Positions 2,309 to 19,402 are shown, counted from the stretch's first letter. The stretch: 20,000 nt of DNA from an uncultured virus (IMG/VR IMGVR_UViG_3300022602_000089) (IMGVR_UViG_3300022602_000089); one strand, 5' to 3'. Notes: generated by a model not told the origin, from the sequence alone. A program made the numbers and translations.

Positions 2309-2336
2309 CTATACATATTACACTAAAATAAATCTT

Positions 2337-2774: not shown

Positions 2775-2775
2775 A

Positions 2776-3060: not shown

Positions 3061-4931
3061 TCTTCCATTTCTCCATAGTTGTATCCATAGTGGGCTTCAC
3101 AAGCGACAGGTAGTCCATTAGCCCATTTAGGTGGTGTTGACATGATCTCGACGATCCATGCACAAGCCTCGTCTACGTCATCCTCGGGAACAATACACAC
3201 CGCCGCATCATGCACCGTAAGGACAGGGCGATATCTCTCGTTCAGTTTTAACATCTGCTCACCAACAATAATCCTAGCGAGTGCTTGCACTACGTTTTCT
3301 ACAATCGATCCGCCCCACAAACTTATTGGGCCCTTGCGTGATCTATATTGGTATCCGCTAGTAGTTTCATCAGTATTAAGCTTAAGTTCGGGGTAACGGA
3401 TATATAACCCGTTTGGTAGCTGTATACCATCGCTATACACTTTCACACATCTATTTTTGCCGTAGTAAAAAGGCTTAGTGTTTTTATCCCAATCAGCCAA
3501 AGTCTTCAGCATCCTATCGCCTTCACGCCATAGCTTCACAATCATGTCGTTAGTTTCTCTGTATAGACTAACTATTTCCACACACTTATCTTCTGTGAGG
3601 TCAGCCCCAGGGGGACTTGTCTTTAGCGTGTGCTGTAACTTTAATGCGCCAGTCCCATAACCTAATCCTAAAATGCAAGTTTTACCTACGAACCTTTCAA
3701 CAGGATTTTTCTTAGTGATGTGCTGGTCATATATTTTTGATGCAAACTCTGAGTAAACATCTTCGCCTTTGGCAAATGACTCAACCAAATCATCTTGCCC
3801 TGATAGCCATGCAAGCACCCTAGCTTCAATCTGTGATGAGTCGCAGTTAATAACAACATAACCTTCAGGCGCACATATTGCGTTCTTTAAAGTCTTTTTC
3901 TTTTTGTCACGGCTAGGTAAATTTTGAAAATTAACTTTGTCTGAACCCGCCCATCTACCTGTGTGCGTACCATAATACTTAAGCGGGATGGGTAGTTCAT
4001 GTCTATTCCTAGCACCAATATCTATGAACCTTTGAATCCTACTTTCTTCAATCGTTGACTTCGTTCCCAAACGCACCGCCGCCAGTTGTTGAACAAAAGG
4101 GTCTTCATGCTCTACTAACGCTATAAACCCTTCATCGTTTTTAGCCAGCGCATATGTGGGTTTACCCGTAGTTTTACTTATCTTCATCGGTGTTTCAACA
4201 TTAAACTCTTTGAGGATGCCAGCAAACTGTTTATTACTAGCCAAGCGTTTACGCACCGCTTCTTCATTATCGCAGTCTAGTTTTTCTTTGAGTGTGCCTA
4301 ATAACTGTAACTTCTCATGCTTAAGTTCTTCTAATCTTTCTTCCAATAAATCGTAGTTGGCTCTTAGGATAGGATGAATAAACATTCTTAGTGTCATATC
4401 GATCAGATTTAATTCTTCTTCAGGGAACGCACTAGACAATACTTGGAAAAGTTTAAAAGTTAACTCCACATCGTTTTTGCAATACTCGCCATATTGGGCT
4501 AACTCAGTAGGATTGAAACCAGTTATTTGCTTGCCTTTAGCATCAACTACCTCTGTGCCTTTCTTCCCTAAAGAATATCTTTCTGCAAGGTAAGCTAGTG
4601 ATCCGCCCACATCAACACCATTAGTAGCCCGACCCATACACAAAGTATCAAGGTACATCTTAGGAGTAATACCAAATTTCCATTTAAGGATTGCACCATC
4701 AAACATTGTGTTGTGGCAAAGTAATGCACTGTCATTCCACGGGAACGTGGAAAGGTAATTACGGACTTCGATGTGTGAACCAGAAAACCATTCAACAATA
4801 CCGTCATTAACTTTAACCGCAACTCCGATTACCTCAAAGCGTTTGTCCCTGATATATTCTTCAGTAGTGAGTTTTGTTAATGAGTAGTCTTTAGAATAAT
4901 AGGTCTCAAAGTCCAACGTAATTAGATTCAT
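3039..4931 (-). CDS. polA: Family A DNA polymerase with 3'-5' exonuclease domain (Leu762 type)
   Basis: ExoI LDFET, HN..FD, ExoIII YCKND; motif A DSSQIEARVLA, motif B RFVGKTCILGLGYG, motif C TVHDA. No 5'-3' exonuclease domain. Confidence 0.97.
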   Translation of the reverse strand: MNLITLDFETYYSKDYSLTKLTTEEYIRDKRFEVIGVAVKVNDGIVEWFSGSHIEVRNYLSTFPWNDSALLCHNTMFDGAILKWKFGITPKMYLDTLCMGRATNGVDVGGSLAYLAERYSLGKKGTEVVDAKGKQITGFNPTELAQYGEYCKNDVELTFKLFQVLSSAFPEEELNLIDMTLRMFIHPILRANYDLLEERLEELKHEKLQLLGTLKEKLDCDNEEAVRKRLASNKQFAGILKEFNVETPMKISKTTGKPTYALAKNDEGFIALVEHEDPFVQQLAAVRLGTKSTIEESRIQRFIDIGARNRHELPIPLKYYGTHTGRWAGSDKVNFQNLPSRDKKKKTLKNAICAPEGYVVINCDSSQIEARVLAWLSGQDDLVESFAKGEDVYSEFASKIYDQHITKKNPVERFVGKTCILGLGYGTGALKLQHTLKTSPPGADLTEDKCVEIVSLYRETNDMIVKLWREGDRMLKTLADWDKNTKPFYYGKNRCVKVYSDGIQLPNGLYIRYPELKLNTDETTSGYQYRSRKGPISLWGGSIVENVVQALARIIVGEQMLKLNERYRPVLTVHDAAVCIVPEDDVDEACAWIVEIMSTPPKWANGLPVACEAHYGYNYGEMEEWKPNKG

Positions 4932-5329
4932 TTAAAAATCATTCCTTTTAATGCTCGTAATGCTTCCGCATGTGCATAAATATGCCGACCTGTATTGGCT
5001 AGATCGTTATTGGCTATCGACGAGCGAAGGGGGTACTGTCCACCCATATCCATACCGATCGCTTGATTTAAAAACAACTTTCCCTGCGCACCCGTCGGTT
5101 CGTCCTCTCCTGCTAAATGTTGCATCACACGACCAGTAAAATTCTCTCGGTTTGCTTCACGAATAGCTATAAGAACCGCCTCTTTTTCCGCTTCATTAAA
5201 GTATTCAGCATCTATTATCTCCCTAAGAAAACTTCCCCATTTACTATCGTAAGAGATCGGTGACCCTATTACAAACTCGTCAGGGTGCGTCTTCATACGC
5301 TCTAATATTATTTCTACTCCACCGTTCAT
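4928..5329 (-). CDS. Hypothetical protein, paralog of 7011..7343
   Basis: GVEIILERMKTHPDEF...KW matches GVNIVLARMDTHPEEF...KW in 7011..7343. Confidence 0.8.
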   Translation of the reverse strand: MNGGVEIILERMKTHPDEFVIGSPISYDSKWGSFLREIIDAEYFNEAEKEAVLIAIREANRENFTGRVMQHLAGEDEPTGAQGKLFLNQAIGMDMGGQYPLRSSIANNDLANTGRHIYAHAEALRALKGMIFK

Positions 5330-5607
5330 TTCTCACTTGCCTTTCTTAGTATTGCTCTAGCAAAATCAAACAAATCACCTGTTTCGTAATAAATTGTTTT
5401 TATTTCCTCATTGGTTAATGTCTTTGCTGGATGGGTGTAGAGTGGTACAACACTTCCAACAGGCTCAGTATTTTTTAAAAATATTGGCACATCTTCTTGC
5501 TTAAATAAAAAAGTAGCAGGTTTACCTTCGTAGTACCCAATCCAACCAGCGGGATTTGCGGACTGCTCTATCATTTCTTTCAGCATATCTATGCGTTCTT
5601 GACTCAT
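5326..5607 (-). CDS. Hypothetical protein, modular array member
   Basis: Contains PLYTHP-KTLTNEEI and ends FARAILRKASEK; ATGA overlaps at both ends. Confidence 0.8.
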   Translation of the reverse strand: MSQERIDMLKEMIEQSANPAGWIGYYEGKPATFLFKQEDVPIFLKNTEPVGSVVPLYTHPAKTLTNEEIKTIYYETGDLFDFARAILRKASEK

Positions 5608-5882
5608 TTCTCTTGTGCCTTTCTTAGTATTGCCAAGTCTCTTGCAACCAAAAACTCATTTAAACGGTCTTGTAATTGTTCTATTTCAGCTTCTAATGCT
5701 ACGGCTCTTCGATGTTGTTCTTCCGCAAAGTTTTGAATAAATCTATTTGCGTTTTTTAAATCTTCTATTTCTTGGGCTTGTTGACGTAGCAAAGGTGCTA
5801 CAAATTGTAGTGTTTCCCAACCAATTGATGTATGGTTTTGGTTCATTTGCTCAAGCCTGTTAATTAGGTCATTTAAAGTCAT
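5604..5882 (-). CDS. Hypothetical coiled-coil protein, modular array member
   Basis: MTLNDL...LRQQAQEIEDLK...AILRKAQEK; ATGA overlaps. Confidence 0.8.
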   Translation of the reverse strand: MTLNDLINRLEQMNQNHTSIGWETLQFVAPLLRQQAQEIEDLKNANRFIQNFAEEQHRRAVALEAEIEQLQDRLNEFLVARDLAILRKAQEK

Positions 5883-6496
5883 TCCCCCCTCGCTTTCTTT
5901 ATTTCACGATATTGTTTTAGTTTTACTTTTACATTTAAAATTCTAAGGATTGCTCTTTCAATTGTGTCATTCCATTGCGATGGGTCATAATCAGGTTCAG
6001 CAGGTGCAATTAACTCTTGAACTTCTTTTATACATAAATCAATTATTTCCTCATCAGTAAGTTCACGCATTGGGTGGTCATACAATGCAGTATAGTTAGG
6101 ATGTTTTAGTGCATCAGAACTACAGGTTGTAGTAAACTCAGGTTTATCAAAACCATCAATTTTTACCATCATGGCAACAGGCTTTTGATTAAAGAATGGC
6201 TTGGTGTAAAGAAACTCTCCCTTCTCTCTCGTTTGCCAATCGCTCCCTGAGCCTGAGTCAATATACATATATCCATATCCATCAAAGTCATAACGCATTG
6301 CCACTGGTTCAATTGGGTGTGATTGGGTGTCAGAATGGGTGATGGCTAATTGCTTTAAATACAACTGACGAGTTTCTTCTAAGCGTTCTTTTAACTCTTC
6401 AATTTCTTTGGCTTGTTGACGTAGCATGGCAGAAACTTGTTTACTTTGAGCACAACAAGACCATTCATTTAAATCTGCTAGTTCATTTGCGGTCAT
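5879..6496 (-). CDS. Hypothetical protein, modular array member
   Basis: MTANEL...MLRQQAKEIEELK...two PVAM...LY blocks...ELTDEEI...IKKARGE. Confidence 0.8.
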   Translation of the reverse strand: MTANELADLNEWSCCAQSKQVSAMLRQQAKEIEELKERLEETRQLYLKQLAITHSDTQSHPIEPVAMRYDFDGYGYMYIDSGSGSDWQTREKGEFLYTKPFFNQKPVAMMVKIDGFDKPEFTTTCSSDALKHPNYTALYDHPMRELTDEEIIDLCIKEVQELIAPAEPDYDPSQWNDTIERAILRILNVKVKLKQYREIKKARGE

Positions 6497-6810
6497 TTCT
6501 CACTCGCTTTCTTTATAAGGTCTTTAACCTCACCCATTGATTTTTTAATATGGGCATCGTAGGCTCGTTCCATCATTTCAATCTTTTCTTTATATGGTTT
6601 CAACACTTCTATTTCTTCTTTCAACAAACTAATTTCTTCTCGTAATACACCAATCATATGTCCTGCTTCAGTCAATTCAGCTTCTTGTTGGCGTAGCATA
6701 ATGGCTGATTCTCGGTAAAGAATAATAGCCCTACCTGCTTGCTCAGTTTCTTTACCCAATAATCTAATACTTACACTTTCTAACTTATCTATTAATTCAT
6801 TTGCTGTCAT
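6493..6810 (-). CDS. Hypothetical coiled-coil protein, modular array member
   Basis: MTANEL...MLRQQEAEL...IKKASEK; ATGA overlaps. Confidence 0.8.
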   Translation of the reverse strand: MTANELIDKLESVSIRLLGKETEQAGRAIILYRESAIMLRQQEAELTEAGHMIGVLREEISLLKEEIEVLKPYKEKIEMMERAYDAHIKKSMGEVKDLIKKASEK

Positions 6811-6974
6811 TTCTCAATCCCCTTCTTGCCTTCATAAGCACGTTGGCTCTGTCTGTTTAAACAATGTATGCACTTCCAAATCCTTACCTTTCTGTTCGAT
6901 GTATTCACCAATGAAACTTCACTTGCTGGTCGATATTGTGTACACGCAGAACAGTATTTTTTATCCTCACTCAT
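6807..6974 (-). CDS. Small Zn-ribbon protein (55 aa, below the ORF-track cutoff)
   Basis: MSEDKKYCSACTQY...IWKCIHCLNRQ...GIEK*, two CxxC pairs; GAAGG upstream; ATGA overlap with the next gene. Confidence 0.75.
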   Translation of the reverse strand: MSEDKKYCSACTQYRPASEVSLVNTSNRKVRIWKCIHCLNRQSQRAYEGKKGIEK

Positions 6975-7010
6975 TTCTTTACCTTCAACCTAGTGTTATA
7001 TTTAACTGAA

Positions 7011-7343
7011 CTACCATTTGATTAAATTTTTACGTTTTATTGGCGCACTTCCAAAAGGTAAATTATCTTCCTCGTCATCGTCGTCCTCGTCCTCGTCCTC
7101 GTCCTCATCTTCTTTTTCGATCAGCGTTCGGAATACCATGTTATTAAATTCTTCCATGCGAATCTGTTTAATCTTCTCAAAAATCTGCCCCTTCTGCACT
7201 TCAGTCATGGCATCTCTAAAATATTCTTTATAGATGAATCGCCACTTCTCGCTATCGCCCCAAAATTCTTCGGGGTGCGTATCCATCCTAGCCAATACAA
7301 TGTTTACTCCGTTGCTAATATCGATTTGTTTTTCTTCGCTCAT
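7011..7343 (-). CDS. Hypothetical protein with acidic tail, paralog of 4928..5329
   Basis: AAGGA SD; RMDTHPEEF motif; EDEDEDEDEDDDDEED tract from a (GAGGAC)n repeat. Confidence 0.8.
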   Translation of the reverse strand: MSEEKQIDISNGVNIVLARMDTHPEEFWGDSEKWRFIYKEYFRDAMTEVQKGQIFEKIKQIRMEEFNNMVFRTLIEKEDEDEDEDEDDDDEEDNLPFGSAPIKRKNLIKW

Positions 7344-7377
7344 TTTAAAATCCTTAAATAGTGTGGTGTATAGTTAC

Positions 7378-7413
7378 AAAAAAGGGGAGCGAGGCATAGC
7401 CTTACCCCCCCCT
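7378..7413 (-). terminator. Rho-independent terminator
   Basis: Minus strand reads GGGGGGGTAAGGC-TAT-GCCTCGCTCCCC-TTTTTT directly after the stop at 7419. Confidence 0.7.
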
Positions 7414-7418
7414 ATAAA

Positions 7419-7751
7419 TTAATTACGCTTTAACTGAGAATAAAAACTACGCAGATTAGATGGTAAGCGGTCTTCATCGTAAACACTAAAACGATGTAAA
7501 ATAATAGCCCTTAATGCTTGCTTGTGTTCTACATCTGCATTGACATACTCCATCTGTAAGTTTTCTAAATCACGAACCATTCCATCGTTGTATTGCTCGC
7601 TCTCTTTGAATACTTTATTTTCTACTGCTCGGTACTTTGGCGCAAAGAAGTTATAGCTTGCTAAGTCAAATAAATTTAGCCCTGTGCTAAGTGCAAGTAA
7701 TAAAAACAAAGAAACGATTAGAGTAATAAGTCCTATAAAAAACTCTTTCAT
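7419..7751 (-). CDS. Membrane-anchored hypothetical protein
   Basis: N-terminal hydrophobic helix FFIGLITLIVSLFLLLALS; AGGAGG SD. Confidence 0.85.
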   Translation of the reverse strand: MKEFFIGLITLIVSLFLLLALSTGLNLFDLASYNFFAPKYRAVENKVFKESEQYNDGMVRDLENLQMEYVNADVEHKQALRAIILHRFSVYDEDRLPSNLRSFYSQLKRN

Positions 7752-7752
7752 G

Positions 7753-8241
7753 TTAACCTCCTAATGGAATTGGTGAAACAATGATGCGTGGCTCGATATA
7801 AACGACTCTCGCTTTACCACTCTTAGGGTCTACACATTGAACCCATGTGCCTTCGGCATTCGCTGGAGAATAAAGTCCATTAGGGTCTGCTTGTGGCAAA
7901 AGACTCCAATGCCCTACTTCGTCGTTTTGCATCGCTTGTGGATTAGTGTATTGAGTCGCATAAGGTAAGCCGTAACCCACCGAATTACATAACTTATGAA
8001 GTTCTCCATTCATACCAACAATGTAAGTAGTCGTAGCAACGTCTTGGTCTCGTATCTCAAGAATATCCTTCATCATGCGTTTCTCAGCGAAGTTCACAAT
8101 CGAAGGCATACCTACTTGTTGCACTGCTTGTAGACTTAATTCTTCTTGTTTACGACGCTCGATTTTTGCTGAAGACTCAGGCATTGGTTGACAAGCAGTA
8201 AGGACACCACTCGCTATCATTAATGCGATAATCTTTTTCAT
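7753..8241 (-). CDS. Phage lipoprotein (start revised to 8241)
   Basis: GGAG SD before MKKIIALMIASGVLTAC, a signal peptide with lipobox LTAC; GYGLPY..QYTNP and PQADPNGLY motifs. Confidence 0.85.
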   Translation of the reverse strand: MKKIIALMIASGVLTACQPMPESSAKIERRKQEELSLQAVQQVGMPSIVNFAEKRMMKDILEIRDQDVATTTYIVGMNGELHKLCNSVGYGLPYATQYTNPQAMQNDEVGHWSLLPQADPNGLYSPANAEGTWVQCVDPKSGKARVVYIEPRIIVSPIPLGG

Positions 8242-8242
8242 A

Positions 8243-8671
8243 TTACTTCTCCAAGTTAAAAACTGCACGATTTAAATACCATTGGGCTTTCTTTAGGTTC
8301 TCTAATCTATCCCCTTTATGGTCTGCCCTAGTAATATATTTGACGACGTTACCGAGATGGTAGTCTAACTGTTTCGCTTCGATGAAGTCGATAGTCTCAA
8401 TGCCACCTGTTGTATAGTGCGGTGGGTGGTTGATGTTATCGTTTGTAAAAACTTCATGCAAATGAATCTCGCCATTATCACGAATTTGTATGAGGGGCAT
8501 TTCATTTAAAGTTCCACTACGTTGTGGAGTCTTGTTTAAGTTTCTTATCTTAGACATAATCGTATAGACATAACCAATTTCAATCTTCAACTTCTTAGCT
8601 ATCTCAGGGGCTTTTATATTAGGTCGTTCTTGCATTAACTTCTTTACTGCTTCGGTTTTACTAACTTTCAT
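8243..8671 (-). CDS. N-terminal HTH-like domain plus DUF3310 (SaV / T7 gp1.7-like) domain
   Basis: APEIAKKLKIEIGYVYTIMSK is HTH-like. NINHPPHY...IETID...GNVVKY..RA.HKG...NLKKAQWYL is the DUF3310 signature. Confidence 0.85.
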   Translation of the reverse strand: MKVSKTEAVKKLMQERPNIKAPEIAKKLKIEIGYVYTIMSKIRNLNKTPQRSGTLNEMPLIQIRDNGEIHLHEVFTNDNINHPPHYTTGGIETIDFIEAKQLDYHLGNVVKYITRADHKGDRLENLKKAQWYLNRAVFNLEK

Positions 8672-8873
8672 TTACTTCTCCTTTAAGGGTTACTGCGGTT
8701 ATGCCCATATTGGGCGGTTCTTTTTCGTCACGCACTTTTAGCATCATGTCAGCCAACTCGTAAGAAGCAACTGCTAGTCCTCTCTCACTAAATTGTTTTT
8801 TACCTGACATATAGCCGTTCATAGCAAAGCACGCAATCAAATCTCTTAAATACTCTTTATCTTTATTTTCCAT
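8661..8873 (-). CDS. Conserved small phage protein
   Basis: LRD.IA..AM.G......A..SY.LAD.ML..R pattern, seen in many phage hypotheticals. Confidence 0.8.
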   Translation of the reverse strand: MENKDKEYLRDLIACFAMNGYMSGKKQFSERGLAVASYELADMMLKVRDEKEPPNMGITAVTLKGEVNES

Positions 8874-8888
8874 ATTGAAGCCAGTTAT

Positions 8889-9194
8889 TTAGCATCTCCC
8901 ATCATCTATATCATTAAATAAACCATCTAGCATCGTGTCAATATTATTCTCATCGACCACAACTGCCGTTCCACCATTACGTTGAATGTTCTTCATGTGT
9001 TCAGCCTGTAATGCCGTAGGCTTATTCCCATTAGATTTACACTCTATGCCGTAAAACTTTCCTTGATAACAAACAAGTATGTCAGGCACACCATTCGCAC
9101 CATATCCAGCGGTAAACGGCATTGTGTAATAGATTCCTCTAGCGGCTAAATAGTCTTTAACTTTCTTCTTTACTTTAGCTTCAGGTGTTGCCAT
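8889..9194 (-). CDS. VRR-NUC domain nuclease (putative Holliday junction resolvase)
   Basis: E.KV, GVPDILVC, GIECK, KPTALQ and GG.AVVV motifs. Confidence 0.92.
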   Translation of the reverse strand: MATPEAKVKKKVKDYLAARGIYYTMPFTAGYGANGVPDILVCYQGKFYGIECKSNGNKPTALQAEHMKNIQRNGGTAVVVDENNIDTMLDGLFNDIDDGRC

Positions 9195-9570
9195 TATCTT
9201 CTCCTCTTAGTTTCATTAGTAATGAATATGGCAACACGACAACGAACCAACTATCGCTCGCTTGCCAGCCAACATTTGCCAACTCATTATTCCTCATTAA
9301 CATAAGATTTAAATGTGATATCTCGTCATCACGAACTAACTCATGGTCACTTGCAAGTATCATAGCCATCTTACTTTTAACTTCATCAGGCAAAGTCTTT
9401 TCATCGAACTCTCTGGTATAACCGTCAGCGACATACATCGTGTAATGATCTTTTTCTTTACGCAAAGGTACACGATATAAGTCCCATTTATATGGGTGAA
9501 CAATCGGGCTAAGATTATTTATTACCAAGTTAATTCGATGAGGGACTGGACTGATGTTAAGTATTTTCAT
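9181..9570 (-). CDS. Hypothetical protein (start revised to the ATGA overlap at 9570)
   Basis: ORF lies in the operon; the ATG overlaps the stop of 9567..10508. Confidence 0.7.
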   Translation of the reverse strand: MKILNISPVPHRINLVINNLSPIVHPYKWDLYRVPLRKEKDHYTMYVADGYTREFDEKTLPDEVKSKMAMILASDHELVRDDEISHLNLMLMRNNELANVGWQASDSWFVVVLPYSLLMKLRGEDNGNT

Positions 9571-10508: not shown

Positions 10509-10509
10509 T

Positions 10510-10851
10510 TCACTTCTCCTTCATTAAAATTTTCGTTAATAAAATATATAACTCTTCATCGTTGAGATACCCATACACGTCCTTGTTGAGATACCCATAC
10601 ACGTCCTTGTTGTTAGAGTCTACTAATTCATACCACAACTTATTATCTTTCATGGGACAAACTTCATATAAACCTGAGTCCTCATTAGAATAAAACAAAT
10701 TACCCATAACTACACTAGCACCGTATCCATTAGGAAACTTATACCTAACACGTCGAGCAATATAGTCAGTAATACGTATTAGGCTTTTGTCTACCTTGTC
10801 CGAAATAATGTATTCCTTGTAGGGCATATCTACTTTTTCTATCTCGATCAT
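10510..10851 (-). CDS. Hypothetical phage protein
   Basis: F.NGYGASVV...GLYEV...DV.GYL pattern; AGGAG SD; internal 8-aa duplication. Confidence 0.85.
   Translation of the reverse strand: MIEIEKVDMPYKEYIISDKVDKSLIRITDYIARRVRYKFPNGYGASVVMGNLFYSNEDSGLYEVCPMKDNKLWYELVDSNNKDVYGYLNKDVYGYLNDEELYILLTKILMKEK
10561..10612. repeat. Perfect 24-bp in-frame tandem duplication
   Basis: GTTGAGATACCCATACACGTCCTT twice, plus GTTG; encodes NKDVYGYL twice. Confidence 0.97.
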
Positions 10852-10859
10852 AATTCTCC

Positions 10860-11903: not shown

Positions 11904-11904
11904 T

Positions 11905-12117
11905 TCACTTCTCCTTGTCTAATAAAGTTAATACTGCTTTCCATAGGTTTACTTCTTCTTTACTACTATTCTCGTTAACTACTCTCTCCAACGCATAGAT
12001 GTGTGCCATGTCCCCATGCGTTTGTATCAACAACTCTGCTATGTCGTGCGAAAATTTAGGATTACTCGCATCAGTGCTATACCATTTTTCATACCGTTTT
12101 TCTTTTTCATCAGTCAT
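11905..12117 (-). CDS. Hypothetical protein
   Basis: AAGGA upstream; overlaps the vWA gene end. Confidence 0.75.
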   Translation of the reverse strand: MTDEKEKRYEKWYSTDASNPKFSHDIAELLIQTHGDMAHIYALERVVNENSSKEEVNLWKAVLTLLDKEK

Positions 12118-13393
12118 CCTTTACCATGACTTTCTTACCTGATGGGACTTGTAATGATTTATTCTCAGTAATCATCCACAGGGTAGGGGAAGCGATTGTC
12201 CACTCGATATCATTTTCCACATATCCGTCAGTAAACACGATGACACATTCTGCGTTAATCTTCTTCTGATTGATGTACTTGTTTACACATGAGACCCTAG
12301 TACCGCCACCGCCTAATGGTTTCAATAGCGATGCAATATCTTGGTAATGTTCAGGTTTAAAGTATTGTTCACCATGCACATCGTAATCCCACCATATAAC
12401 TCTTACCGCTTCGGGCGACACCACTTCTACAATCGAAGCCAGTTCCGTAGCAAATTCAGTCAATTCTTTGATACCGATTGAACCTGATGTATCTATCGCA
12501 ACTACTACCTCACCGATTGATTCGTTCTCCATGCTTGGTAAGTAAATGTCATTAGCCATGTGACGCTTATTCATCTTGCGCCATGTGTATTCATCGTTCC
12601 CCTTAGTAGTGGAAGCAACAAATTCTCGCAACACTTCTCGCCAATCTATCTTCGGCTCAAGCAAGTCACTAATCTGTCTAGGCATCTTGCCACCCATGCG
12701 ACCAGCCAACATACCGCCTTCACGCAAAGCCCTATCGATCTTGTCACCCAGCTCTTTACGTTCGTCATCGCTTAGACCTTCAACATACGATTCCCAGTCA
12801 TGCTCATCGAACCCATCGCCACTCATGTCATACTCTTTGCCATTGGCTTTGATCTTGCCATCTCCCGTTCCACCCCCCTGTGGATTGTTAGGCTTACCAC
12901 TTGATCCACTTGGTTGTTTTTGTCGTTGAGGGTTCTCCTTACGGATATAGTTATAGACCTCACGCATCGACCAATTATGAAAGAACGGATCGTACAATGC
13001 ACCATCAGGTAGTTCAACGATAGCCTCGTTACTGTTTGCTATTCTTCCTTTAATATTCTTTATAATGTCATTCACTACAAAGTCCGCCGCCATGTTGGAT
13101 ATCTGCTTATCTTCCTTAAACATATCCTTCCCTCTTGGAATCTGTTTTAATGCAACGTGCAAATTCTCATGCAATACTAAGCCACGCAACTTTGCTTCTT
13201 CTTTGATTTCCTCTATGAATGGTTTAGAATATCTCTTGTTCATGCCATCGGTATAAGCCGTAAACTCTTTATCGATTACTTCGGACTTACCCATCAACAT
13301 CACACCGCTATACAACGCAGTATCGTTGTGTTTCATTAAAGCGATATGTGCTTTCTTCAACCGTATTTCTTGTTTGTGCATCGTCATATCCAT
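12110..13393 (-). CDS. HExxH metallopeptidase plus vWA protein (DUF2201-like); start revised to 13393
   Basis: TAYTDG, LVLHENLHVAL, NMAADFVVN, low-complexity linker, MIDAS DTSGS, GGGGT, VFTDG; GGAGAAG SD before 13393. Confidence 0.92.
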   Translation of the reverse strand: MDMTMHKQEIRLKKAHIALMKHNDTALYSGVMLMGKSEVIDKEFTAYTDGMNKRYSKPFIEEIKEEAKLRGLVLHENLHVALKQIPRGKDMFKEDKQISNMAADFVVNDIIKNIKGRIANSNEAIVELPDGALYDPFFHNWSMREVYNYIRKENPQRQKQPSGSSGKPNNPQGGGTGDGKIKANGKEYDMSGDGFDEHDWESYVEGLSDDERKELGDKIDRALREGGMLAGRMGGKMPRQISDLLEPKIDWREVLREFVASTTKGNDEYTWRKMNKRHMANDIYLPSMENESIGEVVVAIDTSGSIGIKELTEFATELASIVEVVSPEAVRVIWWDYDVHGEQYFKPEHYQDIASLLKPLGGGGTRVSCVNKYINQKKINAECVIVFTDGYVENDIEWTIASPTLWMITENKSLQVPSGKKVMVKDD

Positions 13394-13394
13394 G

Positions 13395-13589
13395 TCACTT
13401 CTCCTGTACAATGATTTCAATAGAGTCGCCGTTGTCAACGACTCTTGCCCTACCGTCTGCTACTTGTTTCAGCCTGAATACTGTAAACTGTTTGAACTCC
13501 TCTGCCTTGTATAATGCCCTTTGCCATAAGACAGTCATAACTATCCCCCATATTATTAAAACTATTTCGCTTGGTGTTATCGTAATCAT
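13395..13589 (-). CDS. Small membrane protein
   Basis: AGGAG SD; one hydrophobic segment (IVLIIWGIVMTVLW); fills the gap between the AAA and vWA genes. Confidence 0.75.
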   Translation of the reverse strand: MITITPSEIVLIIWGIVMTVLWQRALYKAEEFKQFTVFRLKQVADGRARVVDNGDSIEIIVQEK

Positions 13590-13600
13590 TCTTCTTCTCC

Positions 13601-14674
13601 TTAAAATAATTCATGGTTGTTCTTAGCCCACTCTGCGATAGTCGCATTGTTTCTAGCCAGCTTAATTGCCTTCGCATTACGCATCATCATAGTAAAGAAT
13701 ACGGCTTGGACTTCTGAACTAGGAATCTTATTAACGAACTGCATAAATTTAGTCAACTCGTCTTGCGTATCCAACACATCTACTGCTTGAAACATAATCA
13801 TTAACTGTGCAGATATCTCGTCAGGTATTTTTACTGACTCTGGAGCTTTGATAATGTCTTTCACATCGATTAGTGTTTTCTCTAGTGATAAGAAAGCCGA
13901 CATATCAGCAGATGCAGATTGACCGATAGTGCCAGCCAATGCGACCATCGTAGCGTTCTCACCTAAGATATCTCTATGCTTCACAATCACATCGCACTTT
14001 GCTAAGGAACGAGGAGAGCAGAATGATAATGAAGTCATGTTAGGTTTAAAAATGTATGGGTTATCATCTTGATTACCTTCTCTGTATGATGCAAGGACTC
14101 TTGGGAACAACGCAACGAAAGCACGAACAACACGAGAAACACCATTAGCCGATGCCCATTGAAGCCAGTCATTTGCATTTGGTTTACTCATTTCAATCTT
14201 ACATACACGATTACCAGCATGGGCTAACATCGAATCGCCTACACCGTCTGACGCATTGTTTGATGTAGCGAAAACCATGCTTCCACTAGGTAGTGGACGA
14301 TCACCTACCATTCTTTCCAACATCAAGCGAGTAAAGATTACTTGCAATAACTTTGGTGCTTTCATAAACTCATCGAGTAGAATAACTTTAGGTCTTGGAT
14401 CATTGAGGCAGAACAGCGAGGACACATAATATTCTAATGTCTGAGTAGCATGGTTCGGGATTGTCATACCTATGTCTGACATATCTTTTACGGGACAGTC
14501 AACATAGATGTATTGGTAGGCATCGCCAAGATCAGATTCAATCATTTTTAATAGGCTAGTCTTACCGCAACCTGGCTCGCTTGTTATAACAACTGTCAGG
14601 TCTTTACTTACTACGGGAATTAATGTTCTTAGTTCATTGATAGATACTGTTGGGATAAAATTCAGCTTACTCAT
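13601..14674 (-). CDS. MoxR-type AAA+ ATPase
   Basis: Walker A SEPGCGKT, Walker B ILLDE, sensor ATSN, Arg finger GNR, SPRS sensor-2. Confidence 0.93.
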   Translation of the reverse strand: MSKLNFIPTVSINELRTLIPVVSKDLTVVITSEPGCGKTSLLKMIESDLGDAYQYIYVDCPVKDMSDIGMTIPNHATQTLEYYVSSLFCLNDPRPKVILLDEFMKAPKLLQVIFTRLMLERMVGDRPLPSGSMVFATSNNASDGVGDSMLAHAGNRVCKIEMSKPNANDWLQWASANGVSRVVRAFVALFPRVLASYREGNQDDNPYIFKPNMTSLSFCSPRSLAKCDVIVKHRDILGENATMVALAGTIGQSASADMSAFLSLEKTLIDVKDIIKAPESVKIPDEISAQLMIMFQAVDVLDTQDELTKFMQFVNKIPSSEVQAVFFTMMMRNAKAIKLARNNATIAEWAKNNHELF

Positions 14675-14742
14675 TTACTTCTCCTTGTGTATAAAAAATT
14701 AAAAAACTTATGTACGTCACCATGACGTGTATAAAAACTGCA

Positions 14743-15720
14743 TTACTGCATACAACTAAACCCACCAAACCTCGATAAAATATCATCGATCCCTTCCTTG
14801 ACGTTCGACCGCACAGCATCGCTGTCTCGGATGTCCTCTGCACTTACACCGTCTAGGACTTTCTCTAGCGATGCCCTTGCTTGTTCTAGCTCGCTATCAT
14901 GTTTGAGATTAAACACTTTGAAACTGTCACACATATCTAATGCTTTCTGTACAGTCGTGTCGTATATCTTCCTACGCTTGGTTTTCATCTGACCTGTTTT
15001 ATCTAAGCCAATATCGTCAGCACCGCAACAATGAGAGATACTCTGCATTACATCGATAAGCCTTCTACTCTGTTCTTTTGCGATGCTCTCGATAATGTCG
15101 GAACTTTGCTTACTCAATGTCGTAAATAAATCCTCAGCGATATCCTTCGCTATGCCACAACGAAAGTCATTTGTAGGAACTTCTGACACATACAACTGCA
15201 CGTTGAACTTCGATGCAATCTGTTCTCTCGGTGGATAGTCCGCACGGTTAAACATAGTACCTTGCTTGAAAGCCATGTCCGATACGATTGAGTCATAGTC
15301 CATGACTAATGAATCCACTAATTGATGGAACGCTAACTCATGCTCGTGATACTCTTGTTTGAACTTCGGCACATCGATTGATGGTAATAACTGCTGTGAT
15401 TGATTCCACTTGTAAGTCCTACGTTGAAGCCAGTTATAGATAGTCTGCCTGTAATTCACCACCGCTTTGTGCTTGGGATGATTAGCCAATAGATTCTTAA
15501 CATACCTACCCGCACTTTTGTCTGCATTGTGTGACATAGTAACTTCATCGCTGATACCACGATCTTGTTTAGTAGCTGACCATACGCTGATATCCACGCT
15601 GACCAACACCGCACTACTCGCCAATGAGATTAAATGCTCAGGCATCTCTAGGTTTAATTTAGTTTGCTCTACTTCTTCTTGATCGGCAAGGTCTTGCCAT
15701 TCTTCTAAATGTCTGCTCAT
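14743..15720 (-). CDS. DUF3150-like protein (start revised to 15720)
   Basis: GGGAG SD and ATGA overlap at MSRHLEEW. SAVLVSV.ISVW, K.LL and F...DYP...I..KF patterns resemble the DUF3150-like proteins found beside phage AAA-vWA pairs. Confidence 0.7.
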   Translation of the reverse strand: MSRHLEEWQDLADQEEVEQTKLNLEMPEHLISLASSAVLVSVDISVWSATKQDRGISDEVTMSHNADKSAGRYVKNLLANHPKHKAVVNYRQTIYNWLQRRTYKWNQSQQLLPSIDVPKFKQEYHEHELAFHQLVDSLVMDYDSIVSDMAFKQGTMFNRADYPPREQIASKFNVQLYVSEVPTNDFRCGIAKDIAEDLFTTLSKQSSDIIESIAKEQSRRLIDVMQSISHCCGADDIGLDKTGQMKTKRRKIYDTTVQKALDMCDSFKVFNLKHDSELEQARASLEKVLDGVSAEDIRDSDAVRSNVKEGIDDILSRFGGFSCMQ

Positions 15721-15821
15721 GCTACTCTCCCTATAAATAAATCCACTATGACGTGGAACGCTATATAAAAAATACTTAATACTAAAAACAGCCATATAAA
15801 CCACTCTGACTTTTTCATCAT
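15717..15821 (-). CDS. 34-aa membrane peptide
   Basis: MMKKSEWFIWLFLVLSIFYIAFHVIVDLFIGRVA*; AGGGGGG SD; ATGA overlap with the next gene. Confidence 0.65.
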   Translation of the reverse strand: MMKKSEWFIWLFLVLSIFYIAFHVIVDLFIGRVA

Positions 15822-15854
15822 TACCCCCCTGTTAAATTTGTTTCCCTACTAATC

Positions 15855-15902
15855 ATTAGTATAACATAACTTTACATTTAAACATAGTGTCTGCGTAAAG
15901 TA
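15855..15902 (-). promoter_or_regulatory. Repeated 48-bp promoter/operator, copy 1
   Basis: 42/48 identical to 17500-17547; minus-strand TG-T-TATACT extended -10; ACTTTAC-N19-GTAAAGT inverted repeat. Confidence 0.8.
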
Positions 15903-15916
15903 TTTTATGTAAGAAC

Positions 15917-16096
15917 TCATAGGGAATACTCATGTGCTTGGATTACGACCTCATAGCCTAATTGTTTAATTGTGTATATATCCGTTTTAGTTAGCGTAGT
16001 GTGTCTTGCTAACTCTGCTAACAGCTTTGCCGTTTCGCACTTCGGATAGATCATCTCGTTACCATAGACGTTGCGTCTCTCAACTATGATCTTCAT
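15917..16096 (-). CDS. Small hypothetical protein (start revised to 16096)
   Basis: MKIIVERRNVYGNEMIYPKCETAK...; ATGA overlap with 16093..16575. Confidence 0.75.
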   Translation of the reverse strand: MKIIVERRNVYGNEMIYPKCETAKLLAELARHTTLTKTDIYTIKQLGYEVVIQAHEYSL

Positions 16097-16575
16097 AGCC
16101 AGTCCGTTACTATCTGACGAGATGTATATGCCCAGTCCCAATCACCAGTCCCTATTCGCATTTCATCGACATCGTCTAAGTTCTCGCCTAGCCTCACAAA
16201 GACAGCACCTATGTATGGATTAGGATTATCCTTATTGTTAGCCCACTCATCTGCTAGGCTAAATAAACTGTTATGGCACTTAACGTCAAGGAAGTCGGGA
16301 TACCATTTCACATAATCGGCATAGAAGTTAATCTGTAAGTTCTCCTCGTCTATCCGCAGTCCTTCAACCCTCGATCTAAATTCCGATTCCACTAACTCGT
16401 TGAAGCATGGTCGGGTTTCTTCCTTCATTTTCGCTTCCGCTAAGAATGTATAGAATGACTCTCTGCACTTAGCTAGATCAGCTTCTTCTGCATCGCCTTG
16501 TTTCTCGCCACTTGCAACTTGGCTTGCTGTAATAAAGCGTATTGTGTACGCAACCTCAGAACGGTATCCCATCAT
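16093..16575 (-). CDS. Hypothetical phage protein
   Basis: MGYRSEV..., VKWY and FVRLGE..DD motifs, typical of a phage early family. Confidence 0.85.
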   Translation of the reverse strand: MMGYRSEVAYTIRFITASQVASGEKQGDAEEADLAKCRESFYTFLAEAKMKEETRPCFNELVESEFRSRVEGLRIDEENLQINFYADYVKWYPDFLDVKCHNSLFSLADEWANNKDNPNPYIGAVFVRLGENLDDVDEMRIGTGDWDWAYTSRQIVTDWL

Positions 16576-16802
16576 TCACCCCCTAAATATTTTTTAACTA
16601 GATCGATAGCATCGATTGGACACTCGGCACTTAGAACCATTGTCCGTTCAACTCCATTCACAACGTAATTAACTTCATGCAATACTCGTGGCTTAGAATC
16701 ATCCTTCTCTATAGCCCTCGCTTGGAAGTATTCAGCTTTCATTTGTGCATCCTTTCTCTCCTCAATCTCATGCTTCAGGTGTTGTGCAAATGTTTTACTC
16801 AT
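16572..16802 (-). CDS. Hypothetical protein
   Basis: AGGAG SD; ATGA overlap. Confidence 0.75.
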   Translation of the reverse strand: MSKTFAQHLKHEIEERKDAQMKAEYFQARAIEKDDSKPRVLHEVNYVVNGVERTMVLSAECPIDAIDLVKKYLGGE

Positions 16803-16953
16803 GGTGCTTCTCCTTTTTCGGTTGTGGTGTTAATAAATAGAAATACGGATTGCTTGACCTGACTGCCTCGATCTTATCCTTGAACGGTTTATCGCTTAGG
16901 ATTACATTAAGCAACGAGAAGTCATCTTGTTTTTTGATTTTAGTTGTTCGCAT
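16795..16953 (-). CDS. Small hypothetical protein (52 aa)
   Basis: MRTTKIKKQDDF...KEKHHE*; AAGGGA SD; fills the gap. Confidence 0.55.
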   Translation of the reverse strand: MRTTKIKKQDDFSLLNVILSDKPFKDKIEAVRSSNPYFYLLTPQPKKEKHHE

Positions 16954-16982
16954 TTATTTCCCTTTCTTTTCTAGTTCGCTTA

Positions 16983-17204
16983 TCATGTTGTCCTCTTAGG
17001 GTTAAGTTGTTTTAGCTGAGTCAGGTCTGTAATCAGCATATAGTTTGATTTGTTGATAGGTGCAATAGTGTACTTTTTTGACTTGAGATGTGCAACCTCA
17101 TCACCGCAATCTAAGCATAATAAGATTCCTATGCGATAGCGTTGTTCACTATATGTATCACCACACAATTTGCATTGTGGCATAAAAGTTTCATCAACCA
17201 TCAC
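16983..17204 (-). CDS. Small Zn-finger protein
   Basis: CKLC...CLDC, then P.NKSNY...L.QLNPKR. Confidence 0.8.
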   Translation of the reverse strand: MMVDETFMPQCKLCGDTYSEQRYRIGILLCLDCGDEVAHLKSKKYTIAPINKSNYMLITDLTQLKQLNPKRTT

Positions 17205-17401
17205 TCACCCCTCCCGTATTTGTTCTCAAAGAAATCCAACCAGTCCTCGAACTCTTTTTCATACTGCTGTATTGCTTGCTCTGTGTTTTCGAGTCCACTA
17301 AGATGTGGATTGAGATGTGGATTGGACAATTTAAATTCAGAATCTAATTGCTCCCATGCTTGCTCTTGTTCTTCCATTAACATAGCTTTAACTCTACCCA
17401 T
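17201..17401 (-). CDS. Small acidic hypothetical protein
   Basis: AGGAG SD; E/D-rich; contains a 12-bp tandem duplication at 17301-17324 (NPHL twice). Confidence 0.75.
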   Translation of the reverse strand: MGRVKAMLMEEQEQAWEQLDSEFKLSNPHLNPHLSGLENTEQAIQQYEKEFEDWLDFFENKYGRGE

Positions 17402-17499
17402 GATTACTCTCCTAATTGATAAGTGATTCCACGTTTGCGTGGATTGTTAAATAAGTTTTACTGCTGGACAACAACGAAAAACGACTGCCTTACTACACT

Positions 17500-17547
17500 A
17501 TTAGTATAACATAACTTGACATATAAACAAAGTGTTTCAGTAAAGTA
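17500..17547 (-). promoter_or_regulatory. Repeated 48-bp promoter/operator, copy 2
   Basis: 42/48 identical to 15855-15902; extended -10 TGTTATACT; ACTTGAC-N19-GTAAAGT. Confidence 0.8.
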
Positions 17548-17613
17548 GTTAATAGCTAACAAGCGTAATACGGCAGTCGAGGGGTAAGGGTTGGATTGGT
17601 GGGGTAGGTCGGC

Positions 17614-17952
17614 TTATCTCTGTTTGTGGAAACTCTTACGTCTGAACAGGACTTCATCTCTGTCACCGTTTGCATAGCGTAGGGCTAAAGACTCTTTGCT
17701 GATGCCAGTTATTTCTGCCCATTCTTTTAGTGTATGAGTTTCGGGTTTGGCTTTGGCTTCGAGTTTGTACTCTACGAATATGTTGTAGCTGACTGGTATT
17801 TTATTAGGGATTGGTTTCTCTAGTAATGCTTTACCACGCAATCCTTTTTTCCAACGATGGGATAGGACTTGTATGCTGATGCCACTCTTTTCAGCCCATT
17901 CCTTCATTGTGTGTGATTCGTTTCTAAATCTGTATATCTGCTTCGTAAACAT
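17614..17952 (-). CDS. Tandem HTH-repeat DNA-binding protein
   Basis: Two repeats, HTMKEWAEKSGISIQVLSHRWKKG and HTLKEWAEITGISKESLALRYANG; GAGG SD. Confidence 0.8.
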   Translation of the reverse strand: MFTKQIYRFRNESHTMKEWAEKSGISIQVLSHRWKKGLRGKALLEKPIPNKIPVSYNIFVEYKLEAKAKPETHTLKEWAEITGISKESLALRYANGDRDEVLFRRKSFHKQR

Positions 17953-17959
17953 GGATTTT

Positions 17960-18360
17960 CCTCTTTGGTTATGTTCTAGAAAAAATTCTAGTTATTCCAT
18001 TGTATCTTAAAATCTAAGAAGTTTCTAGAATTTTTTTGAGGGGTATTTTAGAGGGGTTAAGTTATTGATTTTATTGTATTATTATTATTATTATTTAATA
18101 GATAGTAGTAGTAGTAGTAAGAAAATTCTAAATTCTACGGTTTTTAAAAAGGATATACCTTATGGCGATGTTTTTTTATTGACGATATTACACTCTCTGC
18201 CACATTGTCGTTCTGTGCAAAAAACGCAATTTAGTAGGTATCCCCCTAAAATCGTTTAGAATTTTAGAACTTTTTTACAGAGTTTAATTAAATCAACAAG
18301 TTACAAGCGAAAAAAATTCTTCAGTTTTCAGGAAATTCTAAATCGTTTTTGGAATTTTTC
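17960..18360. other. Putative replication origin / AT-rich non-coding control region
   Basis: About 400 bp without a credible ORF; many AATTCTA/TAGAATT/TTCTAGA repeats; (TAT)n and (AGT)n tracts; IHF consensus WATCAANNNNTTR at 18058-18070 (-) and 18291-18303 (+). Confidence 0.55.
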
Positions 18361-18361
18361 A

Positions 18362-18505
18362 ATTCCACTAGTAAGTGGATCGTTATTTAAGGTCTTGTCT
18401 GTCATTTAGAATAAAATTAAATGATGCAACGTATAAATCTGGCTATCATTTAGAATAAAATTAAATGACACACTCACGCACTCAAGGATATGTAACTGGT
18501 TTCAA
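18362..18505. repeat. Composite intergenic repeat, copy 1
   Basis: Block 18362-18398 is 34/37 identical to 19301-19337. GTAACTGGTTTCAA at 18492-18505 is identical to 19389-19402. Confidence 0.9.
18402..18468. repeat. Two identical 23-bp palindromic boxes
   Basis: TCATTTA-GAATAAAAT-TAAATGA at 18402-18424 and 18446-18468. Confidence 0.92.
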
Positions 18506-18516
18506 TTTGACAGGCG

Positions 18517-18549
18517 AAAAAAAACCTGATATGCTATCGCATATCAGGT
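18517..18549 (-). terminator. Rho-independent terminator
   Basis: ACCTGATATGC-GATA-GCATATCAGGT followed by a T-run, 10 bp after the stop at 18559. Confidence 0.92.
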
Positions 18550-18558
18550 CTAAAAATA

Positions 18559-19200
18559 TTACTTAAGCCATACTAGATTAAACGCTTTGATCGATTGTTT
18601 TAACTTATCAAGATCAGCAGTTATATCGTCACGTTTTTTGGCACTTCCGCAACGTGCGATCAAACCCGTTTTGCCGTCATTGAATACAGCGTCAACGACT
18701 TCTGTAAAATCTTTTACAGCAGTTCTAGCATTTTCCTTCCCTTCGTTTTGAATCCGTCTTGCTTCCCGCTTGAGATCGTTAATGCGATTACTGCAATACG
18801 TTTGGACTTCCTTCCTGATCTGTTTGACAATCGGGTACATATACGGTTCAGTTTCTTTTAACTTACCAAACACTTGCTGATTAAAGCTAAAGGCAAAATC
18901 AACGCCTATTAGTTTCTTATTACTTGCTTCCTTTAGGTTATTACTATCATTAACCAACAAGTACTTATCATCAATTACAGCGTATTGCTTCGGCGGATTA
19001 TTCTCACTAAAACGTAAACGATAGCCCTCGTTTAACTGCTCAAGAGCTTCTTTCGGTATATCTTCGGGGAAGCCTACTACATTGGATAAACAATATCGAG
19101 CAACCGATTTGACAGTATCTCCTGCCCGAGCTTGTTTATATGCACCATCTTTTAATGATGTAATTACTTCGTTTTGTGTTGCAATATTTTTTGTAGCCAT
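18559..19200 (-). CDS. Early hypothetical protein (213 aa), monocistronic
   Basis: AAAGGA SD; has its own upstream promoter and downstream terminator. Confidence 0.88.
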   Translation of the reverse strand: MATKNIATQNEVITSLKDGAYKQARAGDTVKSVARYCLSNVVGFPEDIPKEALEQLNEGYRLRFSENNPPKQYAVIDDKYLLVNDSNNLKEASNKKLIGVDFAFSFNQQVFGKLKETEPYMYPIVKQIRKEVQTYCSNRINDLKREARRIQNEGKENARTAVKDFTEVVDAVFNDGKTGLIARCGSAKKRDDITADLDKLKQSIKAFNLVWLK

Positions 19201-19260
19201 GATGTTAAATCCTTTATGAAAAGTTAAACTGCTGAAATATGACTAATGAGAATCACTAGC

Positions 19261-19299
19261 CATGTGTTATATATACCCGATTTCCTAATTAAAAAGCAA
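19261..19299 (-). promoter_or_regulatory. Sigma70-like early promoter
   Basis: TTGCTT-N18-TATATA, then TAACACATG; same layout as 19934-19972. Confidence 0.65.
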
Positions 19300-19300
19300 G

Positions 19301-19402
19301 ATTCCACTAGGTAGTGGATCGTTATTTAAGGTTTTGTGACGCACTATTGCATATCCGCCATGCACACGCACCACACACTCGGCGATGAGTAACTGGTTTC
19401 AA
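19301..19402. repeat. Composite intergenic repeat, copy 2
   Basis: Shares the 37-bp block (containing TCCAC-N6-GTGGA), a CA-rich tract and the 14-bp block with 18362-18505. Confidence 0.9.

Follow-up and report, generated by a model that had tools for sequence, protein, structure and literature searches.

Organization of the early operon and its dyad array

The stretch of DNA analysed here (the window) comprises 20,000 nucleotides (nt) of IMGVR_UViG_3300022602_000089, an uncultured freshwater phage with a genome of ~65 kb, and all positions are counted from its first letter. It corresponds to the early/replication operon of a tailed phage, with every gene on the minus strand, and carries a dispersed dyad, TCCAC-N6-GTGGA, that is the subject of this report. 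From its 3′ end the operon encodes a SNF2 helicase, a PD-(D/E)XK nuclease, a family-A DNA polymerase (PolA; 3039–4931) and a VRR-NUC/Hjc-like nuclease, and further genes code for a DUF3310 protein, a DUF2201 metallopeptidase/VWA protein and an AAA ATPase, together with numerous short open reading frames (ORFs) without a known family.

A nucleotide search of deposited phages with the window gives no match, and the nearest PolA of a cultured phage is 35–36% identical. IMG/VR contains 611 confirmed related stretches, including 64–66-kb genomes that assemble end to end, and the best 80 of these 611 were used for comparison; the label 'DTR' here denotes overlapping assembly ends only. The DNA sequencing runs that contain the window are labelled as freshwater or lake metagenomes.

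The dyad-bearing early arm spans positions 4726–19328 (minus strand) and its elements of ~36 bp have the form A-N2-TA-N4-[core]-N4-TA-N2-T. Four of the ten perfect dyads lie between genes. The array opens with dyad 1 (TCCACTAGGTAGTGGA; 19303–19318), and ~100 nt further on is the first conserved early gene, which encodes a protein of 213 amino acids (aa; 18559–19200, minus strand) and occupies the interval between dyads 1 and 2. Dyad 2 (18364–18379) is followed directly on the minus strand by a sigma-70-like sequence, TTGAAA-N16-TAGAAT (18362 to 18335), that matches 10 of 12 consensus positions. Dyad 3 (17428–17443) has the Shine-Dalgarno sequence and ATG (SD-ATG) of a 66-aa gene 26 nt on, and dyad 5 (15742–15757) stands 21 nt before the SD-ATG (15720) of a 325-aa DUF3150-like gene, a position that is kept in the related genomes G002, G003 and G004 and in locus L011.

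The other six perfect dyads are within genes: dyad 4 (17294–17309) in the 66-aa ORF, where it encodes N-P-H-L-S-G; dyad 6 (14282–14297) in the AAA ATPase gene (R-P-L-P-S-G); dyad 7 (12869–12884) in the DUF2201/VWA gene, where it falls in a length-variable Gly/Ser-rich loop; dyad 8 (9663–9678) near the 3′ end of a 313-aa ORF (I-P-P-H-S-G); dyad 9 (8513–8528) in a 142-aa ORF, in the linker between an N-terminal part resembling a helix-turn-helix (HTH) and the DUF3310 domain; and dyad 10 (4736–4751), with which the array ends, 180 nt from the start of polA (S-T-F-P-W). A relaxed site, TCCA-N8-TGGA with an inner T-G pair (15314–15329), is located within the 325-aa gene (A-F-H-Q-L-V-D), and the homologous place holds a perfect dyad in G002, G003, G004, L011 and L079.

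The head of the operon contains several other small features. A strong hairpin of the intrinsic-terminator type, with a 13-bp stem and a T-run (18551 to 18522, minus strand), lies directly 3′ of the 213-aa gene, so that this gene stands as a unit of its own between the first two dyads. A conserved non-coding box, GGTATATATAAC (19266–19277), is found ~26 nt after dyad 1 in the window and in G002. The window, G002, G003, G004, L009 and L079 also share a conserved, non-coding and AT-rich imperfect palindrome of the type CATCATTTA..TAAATGA (18399–18424) in the interval from dyad 1 to dyad 2. The promoter-like match past dyad 2 is followed by an ORF-free, AT-rich stretch of ~390 nt (17953–18340, minus strand) with TAC (five times) and AAT (six times) repeats, a fold z-score of −2.41 and no Rfam match. 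Dyad 4 is adjoined by an extra half-site in a tandem duplication (17294–17330) that contains ATCCACATCT(C/T) twice and encodes NPHLNPHL.

Enrichment of the dyad

The ten perfect copies in the window compare with none in 200 dinucleotide-preserving shuffles, and with a mean of 0.02 (maximum 1) in a second set of 100. Allowing up to one mismatch gives 16 sites against 0.34 expected (maximum 3). Among spacers of 0–20, N6 alone is enriched, with a single copy at N18, none at N5 or N7 and none with abutting half-sites (spacer 0), and the everted arrangement GTGGA..TCCAC occurs once, at N20. TCCAC is also the only 5-N6-5 palindrome in the window that exceeds two copies. For the six sites within genes (4736, 8513, 9663, 12869, 14282 and 17294), 2000 codon-preserving controls, made by synonymous shuffling within each gene with the proteins verified as unchanged, have a mean of 0.14 in-ORF sites and a maximum of 3.

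The dyads had been noticed in a first-pass annotation, which listed the ten perfect sites with their spacers, five single-mismatch sites and an empty region from position 1 to 4735. All of these were recovered, and a sixth single-mismatch site at 8970 was added; the comparisons that the annotation had proposed, with codon-preserving shuffles and with N5 and N7 spacers, both set the dyad apart from its controls. Its count of seven perfect sites in ORFs is too high by one, because 15742 precedes the SD-ATG at 15720 and would be in-ORF solely if an upstream GTG were the start of the 325-aa gene. The annotation also described the use of all three reading frames. The perfect in-ORF sites use two of them (P-x-x-x-G five times and S-T-F-P-W once), and the third (F-H-x-L-V-D) is used by the near-site at 15314 and by perfect sites in relatives.

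Anatomy of the element

The full element is an imperfect palindrome of ~36 bp. With sites aligned in gene orientation and grouped by orthology (28 intergenic and 35 ORF-internal groups), the frequencies of the preferred flank bases in intergenic and ORF-internal groups are 0.82 and 0.78 for A at −9, 0.75 and 0.82 for T at −6, and 0.77 and 0.77 for A at −5. Their mirror images on the other side are T at +5, A at +6 (0.65 and 0.77) and T at +9. A flank score of at least 4 out of 6 is reached by 9/10 perfect window sites versus 7% of random arm positions. The five one-mismatch 16-bp sites at 8970, 11481, 12175, 12598 and 16388 (span 8970–16403) score 2–4, where random positions average 1.85, and are probably degenerate members of the array. 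The base after TCCAC is A in 5/64 sites, and position −3 is C in 43/64. The upstream flank scores better in 108/160 sites, which is a weak orientation bias. The polarity that had been read from the spacers is correspondingly weak: 7/10 do begin with TA, but the flanks are nearly mirror-symmetric.

The clades together have 128 distinct sites, 61 of them between genes and the other 67 in a reading frame that is open for 60 nt on both sides. The intergenic copies sit between a stop codon and an SD sequence, as might be expected of an RNA hairpin in early transcripts that acts as a translational operator, a processing site or a stabiliser 5′ of ribosome-binding sites. The perfect sites fold, as 24-nt segments, at −6 to −10 kcal/mol, and the dyad of one related clade (the CTGAC clade, described below) has a stem of 8 bp. 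However, the arms are constant within a genome, with no site-by-site covariation, and Watson-Crick pairing of the flanks is at or below the base-frequency expectation at 13/14 positions, which rules out an extended hairpin; what is conserved in the flanks is mirror-symmetric as sequence. Half of the sites are deep within ORFs, and those of genome G015 have no stable stem: its inner pair is mismatched in 9/14 sites, and in eight of these the fold is −0.8 to −3.3 kcal/mol. A role in RNA is therefore highly improbable.

It is also quite improbable that the dyads are phage-specific promoters, read by a phage RNA polymerase or a phage-modified host polymerase in the manner of T7-type or N4 hairpin promoters. 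Promoter sets of both these types likewise differ between relatives, and we take the density of ~1/kb, the intra-gene copies and the clade-specific word to be reminiscent of T7 class II promoters. Many sites are situated 15–30 nt before an SD-start (in the CTGAC genomes G012 and G013, 6/9 sites each at 15–26 nt), and the CTGAC-clade element forms a stable 8-bp stem with a 3-nt loop. The element is nevertheless mirror-symmetric, flanks included, where asymmetry would be looked for in a promoter. No −10-like, −35-like or SD word keeps a constant distance from the dyad in as many as 20% of the 61 intergenic sites, which rules out a fixed promoter geometry, and promoter-like matches in the region number 34 versus 49.2 in shuffles. 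The T7-like RNA polymerase domain (PF00940) is unmatched in five genomes, in a search that matched no control genome either and so had no positive control, and two large ORFs of 2248 and 929 aa have no polymerase match. The mirror symmetry, the lack of flank covariation and the lack of a fixed-offset promoter element favour double-stranded DNA bound by a sequence-specific dimer, which would fit the element better than a hairpin or a promoter. To this extent the first-pass proposal of a dimeric, sequence-specific binder on the early region, in place of a protein motif, is supported by inference, with the exception of the polarity.

Clade-specific words in related phages

The complete genomes G002, G003 and G004 have 9, 7 and 5 perfect sites, respectively, every one of them in a single arm, and the other ~50 kb has none. 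This arm, 10–14 kb in length, extends from the head of the early operon, beside the divergent terminase and structural genes, to 180 nt into polA. Genome G001, which shares 63% of the k-mers of the window, has nine dyad sites, eight of them with the spacers of the window, and contains no dyad beyond dyad 1 in the 7 kb past the right end of the window. The perfect TCCAC dyad occurs in 19/80 loci, 18 of which are among the 19 loci with a PolA identity of at least 77% (L001–L016, L076, L079 and L080; the TCCAC clade); outside this group, L036 has one lone copy. The dyad at the start of polA is perfect in 18/19 loci of the clade and is a one-base variant in L016.

De novo searches reveal other dyads in other clades: TTCAC-N6-GTGAA, TACAC-N6-GTGTA, GTCGA-N6-TCGAC, CTGAC-N5-GTCAG (in full ACCTGACA-N3-TGTCAGGT, with an 8-bp stem and a 3-nt loop) and AGCGT-N8-ACGCT. 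The GTCGA dyad is known from loci only. In the whole records G007–G014 each alternative dyad is confined to a stretch of ~5–10 kb upstream of polA, and in G015 the form TTCA-N8-TGAA occurs 14 times in the arm and 15 times in the whole genome, versus 1.55 in shuffles. Relaxed 4+4 dyads number 11 in the window, 12 in the arm of G003 and 10 in G009, and about 10–14 sites are kept per genome. There is one arm word per genome and seven word variants in total; the arms of a whole array switch in concert between clades, and the motif type tracks PolA relatedness. In 22 loci the sequence reaches 10 kb or more upstream of polA, and 17 of these have one dyad type in three or more copies. In 39 kb of KPP25, a cultured relative whose PolA is 35% identical, nothing comparable is present. 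Judged from these sequence patterns, the dyads are likely to be sites in double-stranded DNA that are bound by a protein, with a specificity that co-evolves with this trans-acting factor.

Selection on DNA over protein

Selection acts at the DNA level, and conserved residues are overridden to keep the arms. The ATPase contains a conserved stretch, G-D-x-P-L-P-x-G-S, that is written in the window and G002 as xxT-CCA-CTA-CCx-xGT-GGA, and 5/9 genomes (G009 and G012–G015) encode P-L-P-x-G-S by other codons and have no dyad at this place. In the TTCAC genome G007 the place homologous to dyad 6 reads GTT-TCA-CTA-CCA-CGT-GAA (TTCAC..GTGAA), and a Pro that is kept in 6/9 genomes has become Ser and a Gly that is kept in 8/9 has become Glu. 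The ATPase site is absent from G003, indicating turnover.

The residues at other sites also change with the word. The Gly/Ser-rich loop of the VWA protein has P..G, S..E or T..V by clade, and PolA has P-W (CCG-TGG-A) in the TCCAC clade and D-W or N-W in others. The dyad at the start of polA is displaced 26 nt upstream of the TCCAC place in the TTCAC loci L017 and L018, and 37 nt upstream in the G015 clade. The three clades thus have polA dyads at different offsets but within ~40 nt of each other, ~140–180 nt into the gene, and are three independent solutions for a site at the start of polA.

Depletion of restriction-type palindromes

The dyad arm is nearly free of restriction-type 4-bp palindromes that are common elsewhere in the genome, and the avoided set varies by genome (AGCT, GTAC, GGCC and CCGG in G002; GTAC, GATC and GCGC in G007; CCGG, CGCG and GGCC in G003). 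The arm of G002 has 11 AGCT versus 77.9 expected, 3 GTAC versus 57.1 and no GGCC versus 7.8; the last of its four avoided palindromes before the arm is at 18611, the first dyad is at 18681, and the palindrome-depleted stretch is 18612–22487. In G015 the dyads extend from 5212 to 16890 and GGCC is missing between 5125 and 16253, G007 has no GTAC, GATC or GCGC from 26838 to 41275, and the window has no GGCC, CCGG or CGCG from 3330 to 19403. The starting points of the dyad array and of the palindrome depletion are no more than ~100 nt apart, and their extents largely coincide.

This coincidence would be expected equally well if the dyads were sites for handling DNA, with no part in gene regulation. 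An injected or very early protein would hold, pull in, gate or shield the first-entering 10–14 kb, by analogy with the first-step transfer of T5-like phages or the stepwise entry of T7-like phages. The dyads are tolerated anywhere, ORFs included; the start of the operon adjoins the terminase genes and is a likely genome end, and the relative G002 encodes a 2248-aa polyvalent virion-type protein. We regard handling as a possible but doubtful explanation. The specificity of a handling protein has no evident reason to diversify by clade, the sites of the CTGAC clade are mostly just before start codons, which points to gene expression, and the restriction-free stretch of G007 extends ~5 kb beyond its last dyad.

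A variant that combines entry with management of the early arm is fairly unlikely. A fast-diversifying dimer, possibly the 213-aa protein or an injected virion protein, would grip the 36-bp dyads, spaced at about one per kilobase in the first 10–14 kb, and gate the manner and timing in which the rest of the genome and the early genes become available; the clade words would be a private code by which co-infecting relatives are kept from mutual interference. The first-step-transfer DNA and the injection stop signal of T5 are similar in that a leading segment has special sequence properties, with many repeats or palindromes thought to be bound by protein (10.1101/866236); the dyad arm likewise stands out by its lack of restriction sites. 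The T5 repeats are however concentrated in a non-coding region of 1.2–1.7 kb and include DnaA boxes (10.1101/866236), whereas here a single dyad is spread over 10–14 kb of coding DNA.

The 2248-aa protein of G002 (42591–49337, minus strand; L085:2591–9337) combines an HExxH motif with the 'polyvalent protein' domain LPD38, and its gene adjoins that for a 929-aa Gln/Gly/Ala-rich protein. The two products are probably injected or internal virion proteins.

The differing avoided sets suggest different hosts, and clade words could mirror those hosts if the dyads were recognised by a host protein, for instance a global regulator or a nucleoid protein; the search for a phage-encoded binder (below) was also without result. 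Yet G002 and G003 share the TCCAC word and avoid different restriction palindromes, and the motif type goes with PolA relatedness. The dyads do not fit the DnaA box, for which the consensus TTWTNCACA is quoted (10.1101/866236): the final A of this 9-mer is present after TCCAC in the few sites noted above, and the CTGAC, GTCGA and AGCGT words fit no better. Binding by a host protein is accordingly rated as improbable.

Candidate binding proteins

A protein that binds the dyads would probably be encoded by the phage, and a weak candidate is the 213-aa product of the first early gene. All six of the genomes compared that carry TNCA-type dyads have this gene, as does G014; both CTGAC genomes lack it and have an unrelated first gene. 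The protein is predicted to form a symmetric homodimer, with an interaction prediction score from aligned errors (ipSAE) of 0.79 in three runs against 0.00 for the best of three controls, at least 91% contact agreement between runs, and a predicted local distance difference test (pLDDT) of at least 84 for the partner. The mark used is reached by 20/30 solved homodimers and 1/23 solved monomers, a calibration that is rough here as a custom alignment was used. The model supports pairing of the protein.

Its fold is less informative. The 213-aa protein matches no Pfam or PHROG family, none of its 40 homologues has a Pfam domain, and a Foldseek search of the PDB with its AlphaFold2 model (pLDDT 87.3) returns nothing at E ≤ 0.001. 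Against VIA-wide the best Z is 5.9, the N-terminal domain alone (pLDDT 78.4) gives a best Z of 3.8, and the nearest named cluster in the Atlas is 'phage repressor c', with a score of 0.75 that is under the counting level. Nor does identity follow the word: the copies of the window and G003, both with TCCAC, are 28% identical, and those of the window and a TTCAC genome are 37% identical. The lack of a recognisable DNA-binding fold, together with this pattern of identity, disfavours the protein as the determinant of specificity.

Three other proteins were considered and set aside. A 73-aa zinc-ribbon protein has a weak Atlas lead to zf-dskA_traR (0.90, with 157 shared features). A 61-aa sigma-70 region-4/Cro-like HTH protein (L084:14714–14899; G002 34714–34899) is encoded just after polA in G002–G004 and is missing at the covered position in the window and in G001. 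A 112-aa ORF (17614–17952, minus strand) with two HTH-like repeats, HT-x-KEWAE-x-x-GIS, has no homologue in the compared relatives.

Dispersed palindromes of similar length, some of them intragenic, that are clustered and bound by dimers are known from parS/ParB and from the KorB O_B sites of IncP plasmids. The dyads could similarly be centromere-like or replication-organising sites, at which a spreading or bridging protein would load and position the replicating DNA. They are dispersed 16-bp palindromes, many are intra-ORF and they cluster around replication genes; a half-site with its flank, (G)TT-N-CAC, presumably resembles the parS half-site TGTT-N-CAC. This explanation is unlikely, however, as a 6-bp spacer parts the half-sites, which abut in parS, a position left free in parS stays fixed within each phage genome, and the words of the CTGAC, GTCGA and AGCGT clades are unrelated to parS. 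In addition, ParB_N (PF02195) is matched in 0/5 genomes, four of them complete, by a search that matched 11/14 control genomes. The integrase (PF00589) and resolvase (PF00239) families are each unmatched in the same number of genomes (0/5, four complete), which speaks against recombinase core sites of the lox/dif/res type (inverted arms around a 6–8-bp spacer), as these would call for an encoded tyrosine or serine recombinase.

A putative operator array

The reading that we prefer, with a probability of roughly 0.4, is that the ~36-bp sites, kept in the first-transcribed 10–14 kb alone, are bound by a sequence-specific and probably phage-encoded homodimer and form an operator and roadblock array for control of the early operon. 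What was observed directly comprises the sites with their symmetry and their confinement to one arm, the concerted switches and the DNA-level selection; the binding by a dimer and the steps of control are conjectural. The homodimeric protein would accumulate, or come from a phage already in the cell, and then occupy the dyads. Bound dyads at the head of the operon, two of them abutting promoter-like sequences, would block initiation, and those bound between and within genes would obstruct elongating RNA polymerase. The early operon would in this way be shut down or gated as a unit, as stoperators do in a lysogen.

Several findings weigh against an operator array. No DNA-binding-annotated family or HTH regulator is common to all dyad-bearing genomes, and among the five genomes searched the missing integrase leaves no sign of lysogeny, the state for which such silencing is known, with resolvase and ParB_N missing as well. 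One or no dyad copy is held by 5/22 loci with sufficient upstream sequence, and de novo dyad searches in these five (L036, L047, L048, L052 and L061) find no other dyad; the dyad system is thus common in the phage family but not universal. The spacer geometry varies by clade (N5, N6 and N8), so that one homologous dimer cannot fit every clade. The dyad is palindromic with little orientation bias, in contrast to the asymmetric and orientation-dependent stoperators, and the overlap with palindrome depletion is accommodated equally well by DNA handling. Three metatranscriptome runs contain short low-depth contigs of the window (share 0.05–0.07), without starts, ends or strand.

Stoperators are the closest analogue of such an operator array. 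In Cluster A mycobacteriophages (L5, Bxb1 and TipsytheTRex) the immunity repressor binds more than 20 dispersed short sites, in promoters and in short gaps between genes, at which the initiation as well as the elongation of transcription is halted (PMC9283540, PMC6550527). These are asymmetric 13-bp sites that are monomer-bound, orientation-dependent and distributed genome-wide in temperate phages, with a motif that varies by subcluster and tracks the repressor (PMC9283540, PMC6550527). The likeness is that one short word is dispersed through transcribed DNA and diverges by clade, and such clade-specific divergence is a known pattern of repressors and stoperators (PMC6550527). Several defining features of stoperators are lacking here: the dyad is a palindrome of 16–36 bp, is restricted to the early arm and is often deep in ORFs, and no integrase or known repressor was found.

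Arrays of a single dispersed word are therefore known already (stoperators, parS and KorB operators). What is distinctive here is that the word takes a 36-bp palindromic form, is limited to an early arm free of restriction sites, runs through conserved codons and has been re-coded repeatedly, in a phage family with no sign of lysogeny. The operators of CRP-type regulators presumably have the same 5-N6-5 geometry with A/T-rich flanks and arms one helical turn apart, for which a DNA-bending HTH dimer would be typical, but the arms differ in sequence and are everted relative to TGTGA-N6-TCACA, and no CRP-like protein was found in the phage. The PeSL (promoter-early stem-loop) cassettes of T4-type phages are similar as repeated small elements between early genes (PMC2839356). 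They are however composed of a strong sigma-70 promoter and a terminator stem-loop between genes, whereas the dyads have no promoter at a fixed offset, their stems are weak or absent and 67/128 lie in an open frame. Searches of the open-access literature found no description of such a dyad array, which does not prove its absence elsewhere.

If a dimer does bind, the array would be a whole-operon control or handling system in abundant, lytic-looking lake phages. Its specificity would have been re-written several times, at a dozen sites simultaneously and partly at the cost of conserved residues, giving a natural set of orthogonal pairs of protein and DNA site and a clear case of DNA-level selection that overrides protein conservation. 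It would also offer a handle on how the first-entering, restriction-site-free arm is managed. The array is approachable with synthetic genes and 36-bp probes, and the uncultured host is not required.

Other features of the window

An Rfam search of the window gives no match. A coding tandem duplication (10510–10851) contains NKDVYGYL twice in a 113-aa ORF. The small ORFs that form a block at positions 5337–6810 encode coiled-coil proteins with C-termini that resemble each other (...ILRKASEK, ILRKAQEK and IKKASEK), and in a lake DNA run the summed contig depth of this block rises to ~12,000, compared with 10–130 elsewhere, and internal joints are numerous. Such a pattern suggests that the block is a hypervariable, recombining cassette region common to many phage variants.

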